Shown piece after piece: positions 1 through 8,875 of a DNA stretch of 12,160 nt. Origin of the DNA: a virus (lineage: Duplodnaviria; Heunggongvirae; Uroviricota; Caudoviricetes); IMG/VR virus record IMGVR_UViG_2609459803_000002, positions 1 to 12,160 of that record, one strand, 5' to 3'. Position numbers and translations under genes: made by a program. The notes beneath the pieces are model-generated. The model ran no database searches, had not been told where the DNA came from, and worked only from the letters and a program-made list of their open reading frames with translations. How positions within the stretch are numbered: position 1 is the first letter of the stretch; every line of letters begins with the position of its first letter.

Positions 1-123
1 TGCAAATTCATTATAAACATCATCACTGACAGCCAGAGCATCATCTGGCCATGAATTTGCATTAATGTAATCATCCTTAAGTGCAGGATTCACAAAAATG
101 TTTAAAGATGGACTATAAAACAT
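1..123 (-). CDS. Tail fiber assembly protein (Tfa-like chaperone), N-terminal 41 codons only; gene runs off the window start
   Basis: ATG at 123..121 sits one nt after the tail fiber stop. Own translation MFYSPSLNIFVNPALKDDYINANSWPDDALAVSDDVYNEFA carries the WP.DA..VS..Y.EF N-terminal signature recalled for enterobacterial tail fiber assembly proteins. Absent from the ORF track because it is partial. Confidence 0.5.
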   Translation of the reverse strand, partial: MFYSPSLNIFVNPALKDDYINANSWPDDALAVSDDVYNEFA

Positions 124-124
124 A

Positions 125-763
125 TTACACCCCTATAGCGATATAACGACCTAATACAGCGTTTGCAGCAGTCGCTATGCTTGAAAAACCGCGGAACTGA
201 TTTGATGTAATTGCAGAAGCCGACAGGATTCCTGCGCCTGAAGGTGTATGCCCCACATGACTAACTATCATTCCATAACATGCTGACGGAAAGGCAAAAG
301 GAAAATCGTTAAGATATCCGGCATCTTCACCACCAGACCCACCAAATCTCGCCTGCCCCCACTGAATAATCAGTGTTCTCCGGGAACCTGAAATAATTAA
401 CGGGATCGTTACATACCCATTCAGGCCAATGACACCAGATGCAGTGCCAGCCAGAGATAATTCTCCCAAACCAAGGTTTTCGAGAGCCGTTTTCACGGTG
501 CCATCCGATTTGATATCGCCAAACGGATTCTTGCGGCTTAACAGCAGCGCACGAAGCGCGGTAAGCAGCTGGTCGTGTTGCGCCTTCTCCAGACTAGCAC
601 CGGATGCCTCCACCACGCTGCAAAGCTCCTCCTGCAACATGTCAAAGTAGTCATCATCCAGATCGGTAGCAGGCGTGCCAGTCTGGGGGTTACCACGGGT
701 AAAACCGTTTTTACCCGCGCCGAACTTATCCTTCTGCGCGGTTTTCGTGTCTATACGATGCAT
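125..763 (-). CDS. Phage tail fiber protein, short (212 aa)
   Basis: ORF-track protein ([22 protein letters not shown]...) with Gly/Ser-rich C-terminal half, GGAG ribosome-binding site 6 nt upstream of the ATG, and a tightly coupled tfa-like gene immediately downstream. Family assignment is by context and recall, not by search. Confidence 0.55.
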
Positions 764-1574
764 GGATTACTCCGGATACCGAACCGTTGAGCATCTCGAT
801 AACTTCCCGCCGCTTGTCGTAGCACGGCCCCTCAATGTTGTACCCGGCGGTGGTGATGGCCCACATCAGTGGCTGACGTCGCGCGCCCATCCCGGTAAGC
901 ATCGTGGTATAAAGCGCATCGGTGGCGTGCTCGTGATATTCATCCACCACGGCACAGTGGGGTGATGAACCATCACCGGGGTTACCGATCAGCGGTTCAA
1001 ACCGCGCGCCATCCTCCGGACGGTTCATGTTTGAGGCGTTAACCTCAATCCCGAACGCTTCCGTCAGCATGGGTGTGCGTTTACACATCAGTCGCGCCGG
1101 GCGAAAGACTTCCCACGCCTGTTTCTCTGTCGTGGCACCGGAATACACTTCCGCGCCAAACTCGTTATCACAGGCAAAACAATACAGGGCAACACCGGCA
1201 GAGATTGCCGATTTGCCGTTCTTACGGGGGATTTCGGTATACACCTCCCTGAAGCGGCGCAGCCGGGAGCCTTTATTGACCCAGCCAAACGCACAGCAGA
1301 TCACAAAGAGCTGCCACGGTTCCAGCGTGATGGGCATCCTCTTGAATGCCCACTCCCCCTTGGTGTGTGGCAACAGCTGAATAAATTTCGCGGCCCGTTC
1401 AGCCAGGTCCTTGTCGAAGCGGTAACGAAACGACTTACTTTTTTCCGCCATCAGGTCATCAAGATGGCGCTGGCAGGCCTGAATCACAAACTGGCAGGCC
1501 ACAATCTTTCCGCGCACGACATCACGGGCATACTGATTGGCAGCATTTACGTTGGGGTAAGATTTCCGGCTCAT
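726..1574 (-). pseudogene. Large terminase subunit, N-terminal ATPase domain only (3'-truncated remnant of a roughly 550-aa HK97-type protein)
   Basis: Walker A-like IPRKNGKS and Walker B-like CAVVDEYHE motifs are present. The ORF stops at 282 aa, shortly after the ITTAG motif, with no nuclease domain in any frame; the next gene is the tail fiber. Start overlaps the TerS stop, as is typical. Confidence 0.75.
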
Positions 1575-2065
1575 GATTCGATGATTTTCAGAAACGGGTT
1601 AGTGGCTTTCTTCTGCCCCGCCAGGCCAATCAGACGCTGGCGGCTGCTGGGGTCGAGTCCGAGCATTGCCCCCGTGCTGCTCATCTCGGACTCCTGTTCT
1701 TTCTTGGCGGTCAGCTCCGGATTTTTGACCATGCCACCCATTGCACCGGTGATGGTGTTGCCCTGTCTGGCAATATTTTTCACGGCACGCCGCCAGAACT
1801 CGTAGGCCACGCACCACCGCTCAAGCACCGCGAGGTCAGTCACGCACAGCAGGCCCTGACCGCAGAGTTCTTTGGTTGTCAGTTGCCACATGATCGTGGC
1901 GAGAGGGAGATCTTCTTCAGCGAACCACTCCGGTGGCTCAACACCTTTGATGGGCGTAAAAACAGGTTCATCTTTATTCAGGGCTCGCTTGCCGGGGTTT
2001 CCGGCCAGCGCCTTGCGCGCCGTTGGCTTGGGGCGACGCCCGGACCCCCCCGCCGTTCCAGCCAT
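1571..2065 (-). CDS. Small terminase subunit, P27 family
   Basis: N-terminus [30 protein letters not shown] matches the recalled P27-family signature. Start chosen at ATG 2065..2063 (AGGAG 8 nt upstream) rather than the GTG at 2074 used by the ORF track. Confidence 0.8.
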
Positions 2066-2104
2066 ATGCGGCACTCCTGGTTAAATTTCATTTTTCGCGG
2101 GTAT

Positions 2105-2190: not shown

Positions 2191-2541
2191 TCACTTTAAC
2201 CGTTCACGGACCGTCTTCGCCTTATGACACGGCCAACACAGACTCTGCAGATTACAGTCGGCATCAGTGCCGCCATGCGCTTTAGGGATGATGTGGTCAA
2301 CGGTTTTCGCCTCACGCACCACACCGGCACGCAGACATAACTGACATAAACCTTTGTCACGCTTCAGCACACGCGCGCGGATAGCGTCCCACTTCGAACC
2401 ATAACCGCGCTGATGACGGGACTGACCTGGCTTGTATTGCTTCCAGCCTTCGCTTTTGTGGCTTTCGCAGTAGCCTGACGGGTCTGTGGTTGTAGAGCGG
2501 CAGCCGCGAACACGGCAGGCTTTTGGGGTTCGTGGTGGCAT
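2191..2541 (-). CDS. HNH endonuclease (phage packaging-associated)
   Basis: Cys/His pattern CQLC...VDHIIP...GG...NLQSLCWPCH typical of HNH; GGAG ribosome-binding site 7 nt upstream of ATG 2541; located directly upstream of TerS as in HK97-like phages. Confidence 0.85.
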   Translation of the reverse strand: MPPRTPKACRVRGCRSTTTDPSGYCESHKSEGWKQYKPGQSRHQRGYGSKWDAIRARVLKRDKGLCQLCLRAGVVREAKTVDHIIPKAHGGTDADCNLQSLCWPCHKAKTVRERLK

Positions 2542-2559
2542 TGGTAAGCTCCAATAAAA

Positions 2560-2585
2560 AAGCCACCATCGATTGCTAGTGGCTT
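2560..2585 (-). terminator. Terminator-like hairpin downstream of the orphan gene
   Basis: AAGCCAC (2560-2566) pairs with GTGGCTT (2579-2585) around a 12-nt loop; on the minus strand the stem is followed by a U-run. The stem is short, so strength is uncertain. Confidence 0.3.
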
Positions 2586-2611
2586 AGCATCTACTAATGT
2601 GAAGAGTAGGT

Positions 2612-3370
2612 TTATTTTTTCTTCTTATTTAACTTATCTAAATTGACGGGATCTTTCCCTGTGGCAGCTAAACACCAAAAAGAATAACTCTTTTGCATGA
2701 CATAGGTTCTAATTCTCTCTAATGTTTCATTATATTTTTTCTCAACAACCTGTATCGCATGTTCAAATAAATTAATCATATCAACATGCTCGTCCTCGAC
2801 ACCAATCATGCTCAGTTGTTTTCTATCTGTCACTGCTTGATAAAATGTTTTCCCATTTTTCCTTATTAGTAACAATGAAGTTTCTGCTGACTCATAGTCT
2901 TGGTTGCCGCTATGTGCTGCAAAATTATGCCTGTAGTTAATAATACAGTCATGCAACCCAAAATATTCAGAATCAAGCCAATCACGCTCCATCTTTAACT
3001 TTCTCCCTTTAGCTTCAGAGAAAGCTTTACCATAAAACGTTAGGCTTGCCACAAATAACGCTCTAATTTCACTTGATAAATCTAGATCAAGTATATTCCC
3101 GTATAACTTGCCATCTGTCCTTAATTCGTTTCTCCCTGCCAGTTCATTAGCTATTTGGTACCACTCTTTAGCACTTTTTAAGTCCCTATGAATTAGTGAC
3201 AGTGAAGATGCTCTATCGGCAATACGCCCACTCAATTTTATGCGATCTACAATTTCATTATTGAATGTATAAACCGCTTTAAATTCCCCCGTTTCGGAAT
3301 CAATATAATATTCAACATCTAACCCTTCATATGATTCACACCCGGGACCTTCTAATTTTTTTCTTTTCAT
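2612..3370 (-). CDS. Hypothetical cytoplasmic protein (252 aa), AT-rich cargo gene with an Rx5H motif (possible HEPN-like abortive-infection or toxin protein)
   Basis: Long clean ORF in a visibly AT-richer stretch. Start taken at ATG 3370..3368 (M9 of the ORF-track protein, whose first codon is TTG). Motif YRHNFAAH lies within an otherwise unassignable sequence; no signal peptide or membrane segment is evident. Confidence 0.6.
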   Translation of the reverse strand: MKRKKLEGPGCESYEGLDVEYYIDSETGEFKAVYTFNNEIVDRIKLSGRIADRASSLSLIHRDLKSAKEWYQIANELAGRNELRTDGKLYGNILDLDLSSEIRALFVASLTFYGKAFSEAKGRKLKMERDWLDSEYFGLHDCIINYRHNFAAHSGNQDYESAETSLLLIRKNGKTFYQAVTDRKQLSMIGVEDEHVDMINLFEHAIQVVEKKYNETLERIRTYVMQKSYSFWCLAATGKDPVNLDKLNKKKK

Positions 3371-3451
3371 ATAGAATATCCATATACGTTTCAATTCTCA
3401 GTCAGCATAGTAGAAAAAAAAGATGTCCAGATCCATACATCGAAAGCAATT

Positions 3452-3916
3452 TTAGTTTTCACACTGACTAGAGATATAGTCCTGCAATGCTCTTATCTGT
3501 TTATAACTGATTTCAATTCTCTCTCTGAGGGTGAAATAATCCCGTTGAGCGGTGTCAGTAAGTCGGGGGGCGGTAGCATCATCCAGGCTGGTGGTAATGG
3601 TCGTTGATTGCACTCTCGGGCAACTAGCGGCGAGGAACAGCCGCTTAGTGCCAACAGCAACATCACGCTGAAGCTGTTCAATAGTTGCTTTAGCATTTGC
3701 AAGTTCTCCGGTGTATTTCGCATCGAGCGCAGAAACATCACGCTGGCGCTGCTGCATCTCAGTAATGGTGGCGTTCGCCTGGCTGAGTTTTTCCTTCGCT
3801 TTATCGCGCTGTTCTTTGTAGGCGATGGCGTTATCACGATAATGATTAACAGCCCATGATAGGCAGACGATGGTGCAGATAACCAGAGAGGACAGAATCG
3901 CAGTTACTCTACTCAT
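3452..3916 (-). CDS. Rz: Rz inner-membrane spanin
   Basis: From the internal start [31 protein letters not shown] the protein closely matches recalled lambda Rz (N-terminal membrane segment, coiled-coil body). ATG at 3916..3914 overlaps the endolysin stop. Confidence 0.85.
3493..3696 (-). CDS. Rz1: Rz1 outer-membrane lipoprotein spanin, embedded in the +1 frame of Rz
   Basis: Internal start gives [22 protein letters not shown]... with lipobox LSGC, then the proline-rich [27 protein letters not shown], closely matching recalled lambda Rz1. Confidence 0.75.
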
Positions 3917-4391
3917 ATAGCTGAATTTCTCTGACCGTTCCGCCCGATTCTTTGAATTTTTCAATCAGGCTGTCAACCTTATGTTCGAACTGACCATAAC
4001 CAGCGCCCGGCAATGACGCCCAGATATTGCTGCAACGATCAATAGCCTGACGGATATCGCCGCGATCAATCATCGGTAAAGCACCACGCTCTTTAATCTG
4101 CTGCAATGCCACAGCATCCTGGCTTTTTGGAGAGAAGTCTTTCAGCCCAAGCTGCTTACGGTAAGCATCCCACCAGCGTGAAAGAAGCTGATAACGTCCT
4201 GCGGCTGTTGATTTAAGTTTCGGGTTTAGCGTGACAAGTTTGCGAGGGTGATCGGAGTAATCAGTGAACAGTTCACCTCCGACAATAACGTCATAACCGT
4301 GGTTACGTGTCGGTTGTCGCCCGTTATCCGTTCCTTCTGACCATGCCACCATATCGAGGAAAGCTTTACGCTGGGAATTTAGTACCTGCAT
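3909..4391 (-). CDS. R: Endolysin, lambda R-type lytic transglycosylase
   Basis: [61 protein letters not shown]... is near-identical over most of its length to recalled lambda R. Confidence 0.9.
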
Positions 4392-4394
4392 AAA

Positions 4395-4721
4395 TTACTC
4401 CTTAGAGCCACCAAACTTATTACCGATTACTCTCATTGCAGCCCCACGAATAGCATCGACCCCGATCAGCCCAACGCCGCCACCAATGGCAACAGAAAGA
4501 GATTTAGGCCATCCGACATACTCAAGAGCGGATGCAAAAGTCAGCGTCAGAGCACCACAGAGCAAAATCTCGAGCGTTTTTCGTTTCCAGCCACCACCAC
4601 CGCCAAAATAGGCAATGCGCAAGCCAGCCATAACGATCGACATAATCACTGCGCCCAGCGGTGTGTCTCCACGCCACCAGCTCTGGACCAACTCCAGCCA
4701 GGTATTTGGGTTATGAGGCAT
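4395..4721 (-). CDS. Holin, lambda S-like (three-membrane-segment class I)
   Basis: Sits immediately upstream of the endolysin. Hydrophobic segments and motifs (MAGLRIAYFGGGG; GVDAIRGAAMRVIGNKFGG) line up with lambda S features (MAYLRGRYNGG; GTDSIGSLIKRFAAKKAG). Exact start not resolved. Confidence 0.7.
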   Translation of the reverse strand: MPHNPNTWLELVQSWWRGDTPLGAVIMSIVMAGLRIAYFGGGGGWKRKTLEILLCGALTLTFASALEYVGWPKSLSVAIGGGVGLIGVDAIRGAAMRVIGNKFGGSKE

Positions 4722-5175: not shown

Positions 5176-6171
5176 ATGTTTGAGCAGCGTAAAGCCCTGT
5201 ATGCGCAACTGGAACAAGCACGCAATTCAAAAGTATTATGCTATGTAACAGGTGATAGACCAAACCAAGAAGCTCAAATCAGCGCTGATGTATTCGATCT
5301 GTTCGTCAATCATCTTGATGTGATAGGTGATGTTCAAAAAATTAGCCTCGTGCTCTATACGCGAGGCGGCGACACTTTAACAGCATGGAGCCTTGTAAAC
5401 CTGCTTCGTCAGTTTTGTAAAGAACTCGAAATCATAATCCCATCAAAATGCCATAGTTCTGGGACGATAATGTGCCTTGGCGCGAACAACTTGGTTATGA
5501 CCAAGCAGGCAACCTTAGGGCCAATCGATCCAAGTGTGAATACACCACTTAACCCTTCGGCCATAATCAATGGGCAGCCACTTCAACTTCCAGTCAGTGT
5601 TGAAGAAATCAATGGCTATCTTGAAGTAGTTAAGCATGATTTGAGTATCAAAGATGATGCCTCACTTGCACAGATCCTCCTTGCATTAAGTGAAAAGGTT
5701 CATCCCTTGGTACTTGGAAAAGTCTATCGAGCTAAAGCGCAGATTCAAATGCTCGCAAGAAAACTACTGTCTCACCAACTCACTGATAGTGAAAGCATTG
5801 AGAAAATTGTAAGTTTCCTTTGTAGTGATTCTGGTAGCCATGACTACACTATAAATAGGATTGAAGCGGTAAACGATTTAGGTCTTACGGTGGAAAAACC
5901 AGATGAGCACCTTTACGGTCTGATCAAAGAAATTTATGAAGATTTCAAAACTGAGATGCATCTGGGTGAACCTTTTGACCCAAATGCTATCTTAGGAACA
6001 GTTAACCAGGCATCGTACGTATCTGTCAGAAGCATTTTAGAGGCTCCAGACACGTTTTCATATCAATTCCGCACTGAGGGGATGTTACAGCGTTTTCAAG
6101 TTCCAGGCGTCCCAGGTCAGTTCGGCATAAATCATAACCTTATCTCAGAGGGGTGGGCTCGACATGGATAA
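5176..6171 (+). CDS. ClpP/crotonase-fold serine peptidase (SppA / S49 / SDH-proteinase-like), cargo gene
   Basis: AAGGA ribosome-binding site 7 nt upstream of ATG 5176. Segment LVLYTRGGDTLTAWSLVNLL ... IIIPSKCHSSGTIMCLGANNLVMTKQATLGPIDP matches the GG ... (A/S)SxGT ... TLG.I core of ClpP/SppA-fold peptidases. Opposite strand to and AT-richer than the flanking phage genes. Confidence 0.7.
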   Translation: MFEQRKALYAQLEQARNSKVLCYVTGDRPNQEAQISADVFDLFVNHLDVIGDVQKISLVLYTRGGDTLTAWSLVNLLRQFCKELEIIIPSKCHSSGTIMCLGANNLVMTKQATLGPIDPSVNTPLNPSAIINGQPLQLPVSVEEINGYLEVVKHDLSIKDDASLAQILLALSEKVHPLVLGKVYRAKAQIQMLARKLLSHQLTDSESIEKIVSFLCSDSGSHDYTINRIEAVNDLGLTVEKPDEHLYGLIKEIYEDFKTEMHLGEPFDPNAILGTVNQASYVSVRSILEAPDTFSYQFRTEGMLQRFQVPGVPGQFGINHNLISEGWARHG

Positions 6172-6343
6172 CAAATCATCTACAGGTAACTTTGTAGTCT
6201 ATACTAACAGGCATACAACTACAGCTGCGCCTAAGCCAGCAAGCATTCCATCCACTGCTCAAAAAACAAGCAACAATGGCGTCAATGGCTACAGTAACTT
6301 TTTAAGTTGCACCACAGGTTCAGTCATAAAAAACAGTTTCTAA
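6164..6343 (+). CDS. Small S/T/N-rich ORF (59 aa), translationally coupled to the peptidase gene
   Basis: ATG 6164 overlaps the peptidase stop in an ATGGATAA arrangement, with GGTGGG upstream. Own translation MDNKSSTGNFVVYTNRHTTTAAPKPASIPSTAQKTSNNGVNGYSNFLSCTTGSVIKNSF; stop at 6341-6343 lies directly before the terminator hairpin. Could be spurious given its low complexity. Confidence 0.3.
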   Translation: MDNKSSTGNFVVYTNRHTTTAAPKPASIPSTAQKTSNNGVNGYSNFLSCTTGSVIKNSF

Positions 6344-6375: not shown

Positions 6376-6738
6376 CTATTCACATTCTAAACGTATATCG
6401 AGCATACTAAGGCAACCATCGATAAATCCCTCAGCCATCTGTATCTCAATGCGTATTAGTTTCTCATCCTTTTTACTAGCCTTGGCGAGCTTTCTTTTAG
6501 AGATACCGTATAGGTAATGGGCAACAAGAAGCGAATGTTCGTCCGGCCTTTTTTGCTTTAGACGAGCAAGACAACCTTCAATAATTAATGCATCACTATC
6601 TGAACAAGCCTGACGTGTTTTACTTGTATAGGGAAGAAGCCCTTTAAACCCAGCAGCTATAGGCGAATAATCTACTCCAGAACTATCACTCGCCGCCCAT
6701 GCTCCCCAACGCTCCAGAACCATCTGAATATCACGCAT
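6376..6738 (-). CDS. Late-gene antiterminator Q (phage 82 / QuuD-like family)
   Basis: N-terminus MRDIQMVLERWGAWAA and C-terminus GFIDGCLSMLDIRLE match the recalled QuuD-type signature. Start taken at ATG 6738 (GGAG 7 nt upstream) rather than the TTG at 6753. Position between the nin-like genes and the lysis cassette fits. Confidence 0.8.
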   Translation of the reverse strand: MRDIQMVLERWGAWAASDSSGVDYSPIAAGFKGLLPYTSKTRQACSDSDALIIEGCLARLKQKRPDEHSLLVAHYLYGISKRKLAKASKKDEKLIRIEIQMAEGFIDGCLSMLDIRLECE

Positions 6739-6755
6739 CAACTTTCTCCACAAAA

Positions 6756-7752: not shown

Positions 7753-8556
7753 TCAATGAACGGTATCGAGCAGCTTTAACAGCTCAGGGAATCGGGATTC
7801 GAAGAAATGCGGCTGCGTCTCACGCGGATTTGCAGGACTGGTGATGTTCTTGCCGAACATGCAGCCTTTCGCCGTCAGCGACCAGAATTTTTTAATGTTG
7901 TTAATTGCGGTACGGCTGTATCGTTCGCGTTGTTCAACGATCCCCAGCTTCGCCATCTGGTGATATGCCTGATTAGCCGTCAGGCGGATACCATACTGCT
8001 TCAGCAGTGCACTCAGCGCCAGCGTCGGGCGGCTTGAGCCATCAGGCGCGTCAGCAGGAGCATCAATGGCATAGCGCGGTGCCAGATTCGGTAAGCCAAC
8101 AGCCTCCTGGAGTTTCTGACAGGCACCAAGCACAGATGAGTTAGACAGGTTTAACTCCCGACGCATAAAGTCCAGCAGAATCACACCAGCCTGCATCTTG
8201 TCAGCAGCCTGCCCGGATAATTTTTCCGGTGCGCTGGTTACCATATCGAAAGTACGGATCACCTTCAGATGGAATGACGGGCTGATCCACATTGCATAGG
8301 CATACACCAGTTCTTTGCAGACATACGTCCCCTGGTTATTTCCGCCACGAATAACGTTAACTGGCTCTATATTGACATTGACCGAGTTGCAAATCTGCAA
8401 CTCGCTTATTAAACGTTCAGTTTGCTCATTGCGGAGCCAGAATGCAGGCTTATGCTTATCCAGAGAACCGGCAGCCCTGTGCAGATCGTTCAGGCTGTAA
8501 CGACCATAAGCATCACGACGAACTTCAATACCATCAATGACCATCAGATTATTCAT
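7753..8556 (-). CDS. KilA-N domain protein (antirepressor-like)
   Basis: N-terminal MNNLMVIDGIEVRRDAYGRYSLNDLHRAAG...KHKPAFWLRNEQTERLISEL resembles the KilA-N DNA-binding domain. Start at ATG 8556 with GAGGAG 9 nt upstream (the ORF track starts at an upstream GTG). Confidence 0.7.
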   Translation of the reverse strand: MNNLMVIDGIEVRRDAYGRYSLNDLHRAAGSLDKHKPAFWLRNEQTERLISELQICNSVNVNIEPVNVIRGGNNQGTYVCKELVYAYAMWISPSFHLKVIRTFDMVTSAPEKLSGQAADKMQAGVILLDFMRRELNLSNSSVLGACQKLQEAVGLPNLAPRYAIDAPADAPDGSSRPTLALSALLKQYGIRLTANQAYHQMAKLGIVEQRERYSRTAINNIKKFWSLTAKGCMFGKNITSPANPRETQPHFFESRFPELLKLLDTVH

Positions 8557-8575
8557 ACTTCGTTTCTCCTCTTGA

Positions 8576-8875
8576 TCAGGCGGCTGCACCCGCCGTTTTC
8601 TCGTACTTACTGATAGTGATCTCGACCTTCCCTTCCGGGATAACCGGTCCCCACTCCACCAGCATTCTTTTCACCTGACTGTCGTCTTCCCACACACCCG
8701 CGTGGGTCAGGGCGTCAAACAGCGCCTTGTTATAGTTGTCCAGATCGCGGATCCGGTTACAGGAAGCGCAATCAGTTGCGAGCGACGGTAGTGTGTTGTT
8801 AAACTGTTCATGCGTTAGTTTCTCCACAGTCACGACACGCCACGGCGCCCGGAGCTGCACACTCGCGGGCGTCAT
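8576..8875 (-). CDS. rusA: RusA-like Holliday junction resolvase
   Basis: RIRDLDNYNKALFDALTHAGVWEDDSQV matches the RusA catalytic-aspartate region (RRDLDN...FDAL...DD). Start taken at the first in-frame ATG (8875); this gives a shorter N-terminus than recalled RusA and overlaps the upstream gene by 68 nt. Confidence 0.6.
   Translation of the reverse strand: MTPASVQLRAPWRVVTVEKLTHEQFNNTLPSLATDCASCNRIRDLDNYNKALFDALTHAGVWEDDSQVKRMLVEWGPVIPEGKVEITISKYEKTAGAAA

Follow-up and report, generated by a model that had tools for sequence, protein, structure and literature searches.

A mobile gene between the spanin and terminase genes of a lambdoid Escherichia coli prophage encodes a candidate HEPN-type anti-phage protein

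We analyzed a 12,160-nucleotide (nt) window of viral DNA (IMG/VR record IMGVR_UViG_2609459803_000002), which comes from a lambdoid E. coli prophage and is here read along the minus strand; coordinates throughout are positions in this window. Between the lysis cassette and the genes for an HNH endonuclease and the terminase lies an AT-rich gene, here called the cargo gene (coding sequence 2612..3370, minus strand; ATG at 3370, 252 amino acids plus stop codon; RefSeq WP_001407090.1; PHROG 8440). The cargo gene is horizontally mobile prophage cargo, a moron. When the evidence is weighed jointly, the best explanation, which we advance tentatively, is that this moron encodes a latent HEPN-type ribonuclease (RNase) that would act alone against phages in the manner of HepS from the Salmonella prophage Gifsy-1. 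The narrower proposal, that the cargo protein works like a HEPN protein, appears reasonably probable from its modeled fold and from the placement and conservation of its motif.

The first-pass annotation had drawn attention to the string YRHNFAAH as a fit to the Rx4-6H signature of HEPN RNases. The string is present, encoded at 2935..2912 (R147 codon 2932..2930, H153 codon 2914..2912), within a longer HEPN-type Rx5H signature, Y146-R147-H148-N149-F150-A151-A152-H153-S154-G155, whose codons occupy 2906..2935 on the minus strand. A bare Rx4-6H match carries no information because it is expected by chance: shuffled versions of the cargo protein held 1.03 such matches each on average, and 67% held at least one. 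It is conservation across the family that gives the motif meaning. We examined two alignments, A1 with 64 members and A2 with 59 divergent members that share 20-39% identity with the cargo protein. R147 and H153 are invariant in both, and the spacing between them is fixed. Besides the start methionine, the only invariant residues in A2 are Y113, R123, H140, R147 and H153, while A152 and G155 are conserved in 58 and 57 of the 59 members, respectively. Residue 148 in A2 is always one of three: H (32 members), N (21) or D (6). In HEPN proteins the residue following the R is mostly N, D or H (PMC3710099), and position 148 of the cargo family agrees with this rule.

The AlphaFold2 model of the cargo protein, built with the 64-sequence alignment, had a predicted local distance difference test score (pLDDT) of 86.5 and a predicted template modeling score (pTM) of 0.82. 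Its elements run in the order beta-hairpin (residues 17-23/30-36), helix (49-80), helix (96-115), insert (116-133) and helix (134-152), followed by a second beta-hairpin (160-171/174-185), a helix (196-225) and two short helices. The third long helix (134-152) has R147-x5-H153 at its C-terminal end, and the insert between helices 2 and 3 consists of 18 non-helical residues, among them the conserved G122 and R123. A second model, of a 32%-identical Pseudomonas member (P0104), has the same topology with a pLDDT of 90.5; its motif R132..H138 ends the helix 119-137, and its equivalent of the insert spans residues 101-118. Inserts between helices 2 and 3 are frequent in HEPN families, and Csx1 has a beta-hairpin right after the motif (PMC3710099). 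The model agrees with the HEPN descriptions in that work in its four-helix up-down core, its motif placement, its helix 2-3 insert and its post-motif hairpin. On the basis of these models, the core of the cargo protein is probably a HEPN-type four-helix bundle, with a four-stranded sheet contributed by the N-terminal and post-motif hairpins.

Several results weigh against the proposal of a HEPN-type defense protein. Scans of the cargo protein against Pfam, PADLOC and NCBIfam gave nothing usable, and scans of the 123 aligned members (64 + 59) one by one at E≤1 gave scattered noise only (Apo-CIII and a single Dsr1 match); no HEPN-clan match was obtained for the cargo protein or for any of these members. 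Searches of PDB sequences with phmmer and hmmsearch returned nothing relevant, the matches to BRE5 and a uteroglobin fusion being noise, and no Foldseek hit in PDB or BFVD reached E<0.07. In hhalign, the probability of a relation to Ymh (PF09509), the sole HEPN family compared profile to profile, was below 1%. The conserved acid of helix 2 (typically Ex3[KR]), which many but not all HEPN families have, is absent: the conserved residues of helix 2 (96-115) are F106, V107, F112, Y113 and K115, with no acid among them, and the conserved acid of the cargo family, D63, lies in helix 1. Four further conserved residues are no part of what defines HEPN proteins and may point to an active site of another kind. 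Their codons lie within 2951..3034 on the minus strand; Y113 (3034..3032) and K115 (3028..3026) are at the end of helix 2, R123 (3004..3002) is in the helix 2-3 insert, and H140 (2953..2951) is in helix 3. The RHxFAxH string also occurs in tyrosine recombinases. With respect to the defense role, the cargo gene points the same way as the Q-dependent late operon, a scan of its upstream spacer showed no sigma-70-like promoter, its cluster is absent from the DefensePredictor tables of cloned and tested units, and one of the two hairpins claimed to bracket it (3422-3441) is not real.

Kinship with the tyrosine recombinases was considered and dropped, since hhalign gave 1% and neither catalytic-domain homology nor a C-terminal nucleophilic Tyr was found. 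In one locus (L033), the tyrosine integrase at 550-1515 on the minus strand, which adjoins a family member, holds the recombinase box LRHSFASH, a mimic of YRHNFAAH.

Taken together, these results support in part the HEPN idea of the first-pass annotation and make it a stronger hypothesis than before. The motif at the end of helix 3, the H/N/D after the R and the helix 2-3 insert speak for it; the lack of a profile or Foldseek link and of a helix 2 acid speaks against it. Structure prediction with structural search, the check suggested there, gave an AlphaFold2 topology that fits and a Foldseek result with nothing significant. No clear homologue of known unrelated function was found in Pfam, PADLOC, NCBIfam or PDB searches; the sole family-library match was PHROG 8440 (3e-117), a family of unknown function.

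The alternative that survives best, although we consider it unlikely, is that the cargo protein is a mobile defense or conflict protein outside the HEPN group, in which a generic bundle scaffold carries a site formed by Y113, K115, R123, H140, R147, H153 and D63. Its chemistry could then be that of a DNA nuclease or a phosphotransferase, or it could serve nucleotide modification or the binding of a ligand or phage protein. Only two of the five strictly invariant residues belong to the HEPN signature, no profile links the family to any HEPN family, and the depositor's note for an inovirus homologue reads 'endonuclease'; the defense-type settings and the DefensePredictor score described below are independent of the chemistry. 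However, three separate HEPN-specific features are reproduced by the family, namely the R-[H/N/D]-x3-A-H pattern, the constant R-to-H spacing and the placement of the motif where helix 3 ends, and some accepted HEPN families, AbiV among them, also have an extra conserved His upstream of the motif (PMC3710099). An intermediate view, which we rate lower still, is that the family represents a new sensor-effector built on a HEPN-like bundle, in which Y113, K115, R123 and H140 together with the sheet would form a trigger or ligand site or else an enlarged or alternative catalytic center. If true, such a sensor-effector would be an undescribed class of single-protein immunity, occupying at least four tailed-prophage slots as well as inoviruses and defense islands of Proteobacteria.

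The mobility of the cargo gene is seen in comparisons with related prophages. In a blastn comparison with an SfI-like prophage (L002), homology ends at 2560, the foot of the downstream hairpin, and returns at 3508, within the 3' end of Rz. Because homology breaks at these two points, the swapped unit is an AT-rich cassette of about 950 bp (2561..3507, minus strand) that comprises hairpin, gene and spacer and takes in the last ~18 codons of Rz. The SfI-like prophage, homologous apart from this cassette, carries a DUF6979 protein gene and a small open reading frame (ORF) in the slot instead, and SfI and E. coli relatives align with the window at the flanks only. The full 2400-3600 stretch is found in 23 of 5426 complete E. 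coli genomes and the flanks alone in 3753; none of the cultured phages searched carries the stretch. The cargo gene has a G+C fraction (GC) of 0.353 and a third-position value (GC3) of 0.30, compared with GC values of 0.564 for the HNH gene, 0.597 for terS and 0.476 for Rz. Foreign composition, presence or absence among homologous phages and an own terminator-like hairpin inside the cassette are hallmarks of a moron.

The cargo gene belongs to a large family that has gone without a name. A word-indexed search found 197 homologues of the cargo protein, and an exhaustive hidden Markov model (HMM) search yielded 895 clusters (50% identity, E≤1e-3), 452 of them with E≤1e-10. Nearly all homologues are stand-alone proteins of 220-260 amino acids, and none has a Pfam domain or a name. 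They occur in E. coli, Citrobacter, Pseudomonas, Burkholderia, Vibrio and many environmental Proteobacteria. A search for partners in 35 genomic loci showed no neighbor family recurring in three or more, and a conserved partner or antitoxin gene was dropped as a candidate. In these loci, the family genes have intergenic gaps on both sides and the orientation of the neighbors varies.

The settings of the family genes are diverse. Orthologues at 60% and 50% identity lie in the same spanin-to-terminase slot of lambdoid prophages, on the late strand. The lysis cassettes of the slot-sharing prophages differ (GH19 lysin with LysC, or holin_2 with lysozyme), as do the packaging modules (HNH with HK97-type TerL, or lambda-type Nu1/GpA). 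Among IMG/VR contigs, the family gene directly follows a 407-amino-acid tyrosine integrase at the prophage end in 13 loci, adjoins an Int_N-type integrase in 4, follows a UmuC-like gene behind the tail spike in 4, and lies beside an Mrr-STAND NTPase in 1. In Pseudomonas prophages it is found in the early-left region on the opposite strand. In the cultured lambdoid Escherichia phage 2H10 (L091, 4905-5624), int and xis are separated by gp29, a homologue with 29% identity; the order of integrase followed by family gene is the one seen in the 13 IMG/VR loci. The Vibrio phage PQ189351, a filamentous inovirus of the Tubulavirales, carries a 33%-identical homologue (L092, 3986-4723), the one with the depositor's note cited above; its gene comes directly after a Zot-like gene I and an Ace-like gene. 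CTXphi carries its toxin cargo at the equivalent position. A complete Lamassu system (LmuA 7e-106, LmuC 5e-51, LmuB 1e-150) directly precedes the family gene in Chromohalobacter (L039, 2444-6600), both lying on the same strand. Further neighbors include HEC-03, PD-Lambda-3, a CBASS cyclase, NsnB, ABC-3C and a Ymh HEPN protein, some of the PADLOC matches being generic helicases or ATPases.

A defense role for the cluster of the cargo protein was predicted independently. DefensePredictor (Science 2026) lists in its Table S10 1,041 'predicted, uncharacterized defense' clusters of the E. coli pangenome (PMC13092281). One of the entries, a 'Predicted novel defense gene', is WP_073313554.1, with the cargo protein WP_001407090.1 as cluster representative; its mean log-odds is 8.2 (range 6.0-9.4), where the strict cutoff is 4, and neither HHblits nor Foldseek relates it to known defense proteins (PMC13092281). 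In that study, 45% of the tested predictions were validated (PMC13092281). Neither the accession nor the PHROG identifier of the cargo protein was mentioned in the main texts of the literature that we searched. As for the abortive-infection or toxin role suggested by the first-pass annotation, the solo architecture, the mobility as prophage cargo, the defense-island settings and the DefensePredictor listing are in its favor, and the function is a predicted one.

Alternatively, the cargo gene could be a late accessory gene of benefit to the phage in lytic growth. Q-antiterminated polymerase would then transcribe it along with the genes for lysis and packaging. As such it might be a host shut-off RNase or factor, counter a host defense or aid the switch from lysis to packaging. 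Its late-operon orientation, its recurrence between the spanin and terminase genes in three unrelated lambdoid lineages and the lack of a sigma-70-like promoter in the upstream spacer are in keeping with this role, and in one orthologous locus (L050) the next late gene starts 10 nt past the stop codon. Yet most related prophages lack the cargo gene and have other cargo in the slot, and it differs from the surrounding genes in base composition. Members of the family also lie outside late operons, whether adjacent to an integrase, on the opposite strand of the early-left region, in an inovirus or in non-phage islands beside Lamassu. Moreover, the cargo gene has been kept in a prophage that lost its head and tail genes. 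Its own terminator-like hairpin would matter only for polymerase that has not been modified by Q, so the terminator would favor expression outside the late program. For these reasons, we regard a late-gene role as improbable.

The terminator-like hairpin (2550..2585, minus strand) has a 9-bp stem at 2585..2560 with an 8-nt loop, is followed by a U-run and begins 26 nt past the stop codon. It was picked up by the terminator scan and has a predicted folding free energy (dG) of -14.8 kcal/mol and a z-score of -1.6. Judged from its sequence, it plausibly works as the terminator of the cargo gene. The gene had been described as bracketed by hairpins, and this downstream one stands. The upstream one at 3422-3441 does not. 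It is a weak inverted repeat with a 5-bp stem and a 10-nt loop, is not part of the minimum-free-energy fold of the minus strand, and folds no better than shuffled sequences (z +0.14; 102 of 200 shuffles fold equally well). It was dropped as a structural element, and only the adjacent T8 run (3414-3421) is real. Both lie in the 81-nt spacer between the Rz stop codon and the start codon of the cargo gene (3371..3451, minus strand), in which a promoter and terminator scan found neither a sigma-70-like promoter nor a terminator. The orthologous locus L051 has a promoter-like site, TTTACT-18-CATAAT, 45 nt upstream of the gene and a terminator-like site downstream, whereas L050 has neither. Such flanking elements thus vary among orthologues and do not characterize the family. 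An imperfect direct repeat of 29 nt (72%) at 2615-2643 and 3357-3385 was considered as an insertion scar and dropped, being low complexity from Lys/Arg codons (N-terminal KRKK, C-terminal KKKK). An Rfam search of the window for non-coding RNA gave no match.

The spanin-to-terminase slot, with Rz at 3452..3964 and the HNH gene at 2191..2541, is the place where lambda carries bor, and the location given in the first-pass annotation is thereby confirmed. At the Rz-cos/terminase junction other phages hold virulence or fitness morons. Bor, whose gene lies on the opposite strand, is a small lipoprotein that is exported. The cargo gene resembles bor in its genomic slot and in its moron hallmarks (foreign composition, presence or absence, own terminator); unlike Bor, the cargo protein is cytoplasmic and lacks a lipoprotein signal, its gene runs in the orientation of the late genes, and the two proteins are not related in sequence. 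The least probable of the readings is a factor for lysogenic conversion or host physiology without a role in phage conflict, or else a domesticated or inert, non-enzymatic helical protein: the slot is shared with bor and such morons, 55% of the tested DefensePredictor predictions were not validated and the function of the cargo protein is a predicted one, but invariant polar residues such as those of the family (R, H, H, R, K, Y, D) typify catalytic sites, the protein has no export signal, and the family has a wide taxonomic and mobile-element spread and defense-type neighbor genes.

Among known systems, HepS (STM14_3211) of Gifsy-1 offers a close parallel to the proposed latent HEPN-type RNase. 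HepS is a solo HEPN abortive-infection anticodon nuclease that has no partner and is inactive by default (PMC13043305). Like HepS, the cargo protein is a single stand-alone protein of ~200-250 amino acids encoded in an accessory slot of a lambdoid prophage with no partner or antitoxin gene, and its Rx4-6H motif has a polar residue after the R. Both proteins contain a beta element, and HepS binds its trigger peptide by forming a beta-sheet with it (PMC13043305). The two differ in that there is no detectable sequence similarity between them, the motif is Rx4H (R100-H105) in HepS and Rx5H in the cargo protein, the slot of HepS lies between replication and antirepressor genes rather than between spanin and terminase, and the cargo family has the extra conserved Y113, K115, R123 and H140. 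The HepS gene was looked for in the LT2 Gifsy-1 record and was absent from it.

HepT and the MNT-associated toxins (PDB 7AE2 and 5YEP; DUF86/YutE 1YLM) are minimal HEPN proteins of ~130-150 amino acids that are always paired with MNT, whereas the cargo protein has 252 residues, an added four-stranded sheet, no partner, and only 5-8% identity to them. AbiD/AbiF, AbiJ, AbiU2, AbiV, the C-terminal domain of AbiA and Tha of Staphylococcus prophages are likewise HEPN-based defenses of mobile elements or prophages, some of them solo, but their Pfam and PADLOC models miss the cargo protein and the 123 members even at E≤1. Ymh proteins (TIGR02391, PF09509) are HEPN proteins that also stand alone and are similar in size; they have a C-terminal RNxxAH motif, and in one locus (L044) a Ymh member lies two genes from a member of the cargo family. 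The profile-profile comparison reported above, for which the Ymh alignment was built from this neighbor gene, separates the two, and their motifs do not align.

If the cargo protein is a HepS-like RNase, its action may be pictured as follows. The lysogen would make the protein as an RNase that needs no metal ion and lies latent. It would be activated by a cue that an infecting phage provides and that is possibly sensed through the beta-sheet or through the second cluster of conserved residues. RNA, either tRNA or mRNA, would then be cut by R147/H153 sites paired across a dimer, and the infection would be aborted.

The cargo protein is a soluble protein of 29 kDa with a peak KD19 hydropathy of 1.08, and neither a transmembrane segment nor a signal peptide was found in it, in agreement with the first-pass description of an AT-rich gene for a cytoplasmic protein. 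RefSeq calls the identical 759 nt 'hypothetical protein', and the identical sequence is recorded on 585 public contigs, always under the label 'hypothetical'. Orthologues start at the Met equivalent to the ATG at 3370, and an alternative TTG start at 3394 is unlikely.

The genes of the prophage are arranged in the order cI-like repressor region, replication and Nin-type genes, Q, holin-lysozyme-Rz, cargo gene, HNH, terS and terL. The Q antiterminator lies at 6376..6753 (ORF list and RefSeq annotation). The lysis cassette extends over 4721..3452 and ends with Rz, on the minus strand immediately upstream of the cargo gene; RefSeq names its products 'lysis protein' (Rz), 'GH24' lysozyme and 'holin, lambda family'. 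The downstream HNH endonuclease gene, on the minus strand, is called in the ORF list and in RefSeq annotation of an identical region, and it is followed by the P27-family small terminase gene terS (1571..2074) and then by a shortened terL. The prophage is internally deleted: window positions 1-778 (YmfQ, gp53-like tail-fiber and tail-fiber-assembly genes) are fused to terL at ~779, the terL ORF (726..1574) encodes 282 amino acids compared with 577 at full length, and the portal, head and tail genes are missing. The tail-fiber/terL junction at ~779 is present in none of the 5426 complete E. coli genomes. The same prophage segment, with a 100% identical cargo gene (L003; NZ_CP104632.1, plasmid pHNAH212872-2, 75481-88681), is found on a 100-kb circular E. 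coli plasmid, pointing to a phage-plasmid or to a plasmid with an integrated prophage.

There is a second cargo slot between Q and the holin gene, at 5176-6343, which holds an AT-rich gene on the opposite (plus) strand. This gene encodes a 331-amino-acid SDH-type ClpP-like serine protease (PF01972, 2e-14) and is followed by a 59-amino-acid ORF. A near-identical prophage of strain LD22-1 has other genes, for proteins of 313 and 149 amino acids, in this Q-holin slot. At 7756-8589 on the minus strand, between the DUF968 and RusA genes, lies a gene for a 278-amino-acid KilA-N domain protein. BstA-type prophage defense proteins carry a KilA-N domain.

The finding holds no conceptual surprise: HEPN effectors and prophage abortive-infection genes are established, and the cluster had been flagged by the machine-learning screen of 2026. 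Pfam, NCBIfam and PADLOC miss the family, and a profile made from the present alignments would close this gap. If the prediction of a HEPN-type solo RNase holds, an unannotated family of ~900 clusters at 50% identity would join the HEPN-type single-protein phage defenses, and the present prophage would be the second case, after HepS, of a prophage with a partner-less latent RNase. The questions raised by HepS would then recur, namely the identity of the trigger and how the carrier phage avoids killing itself. Given that the family occupies the spanin-terminase junction in unrelated lambdoid prophages and has a homologue in a filamentous inovirus, this junction would be a useful place to seek more defense cargo.

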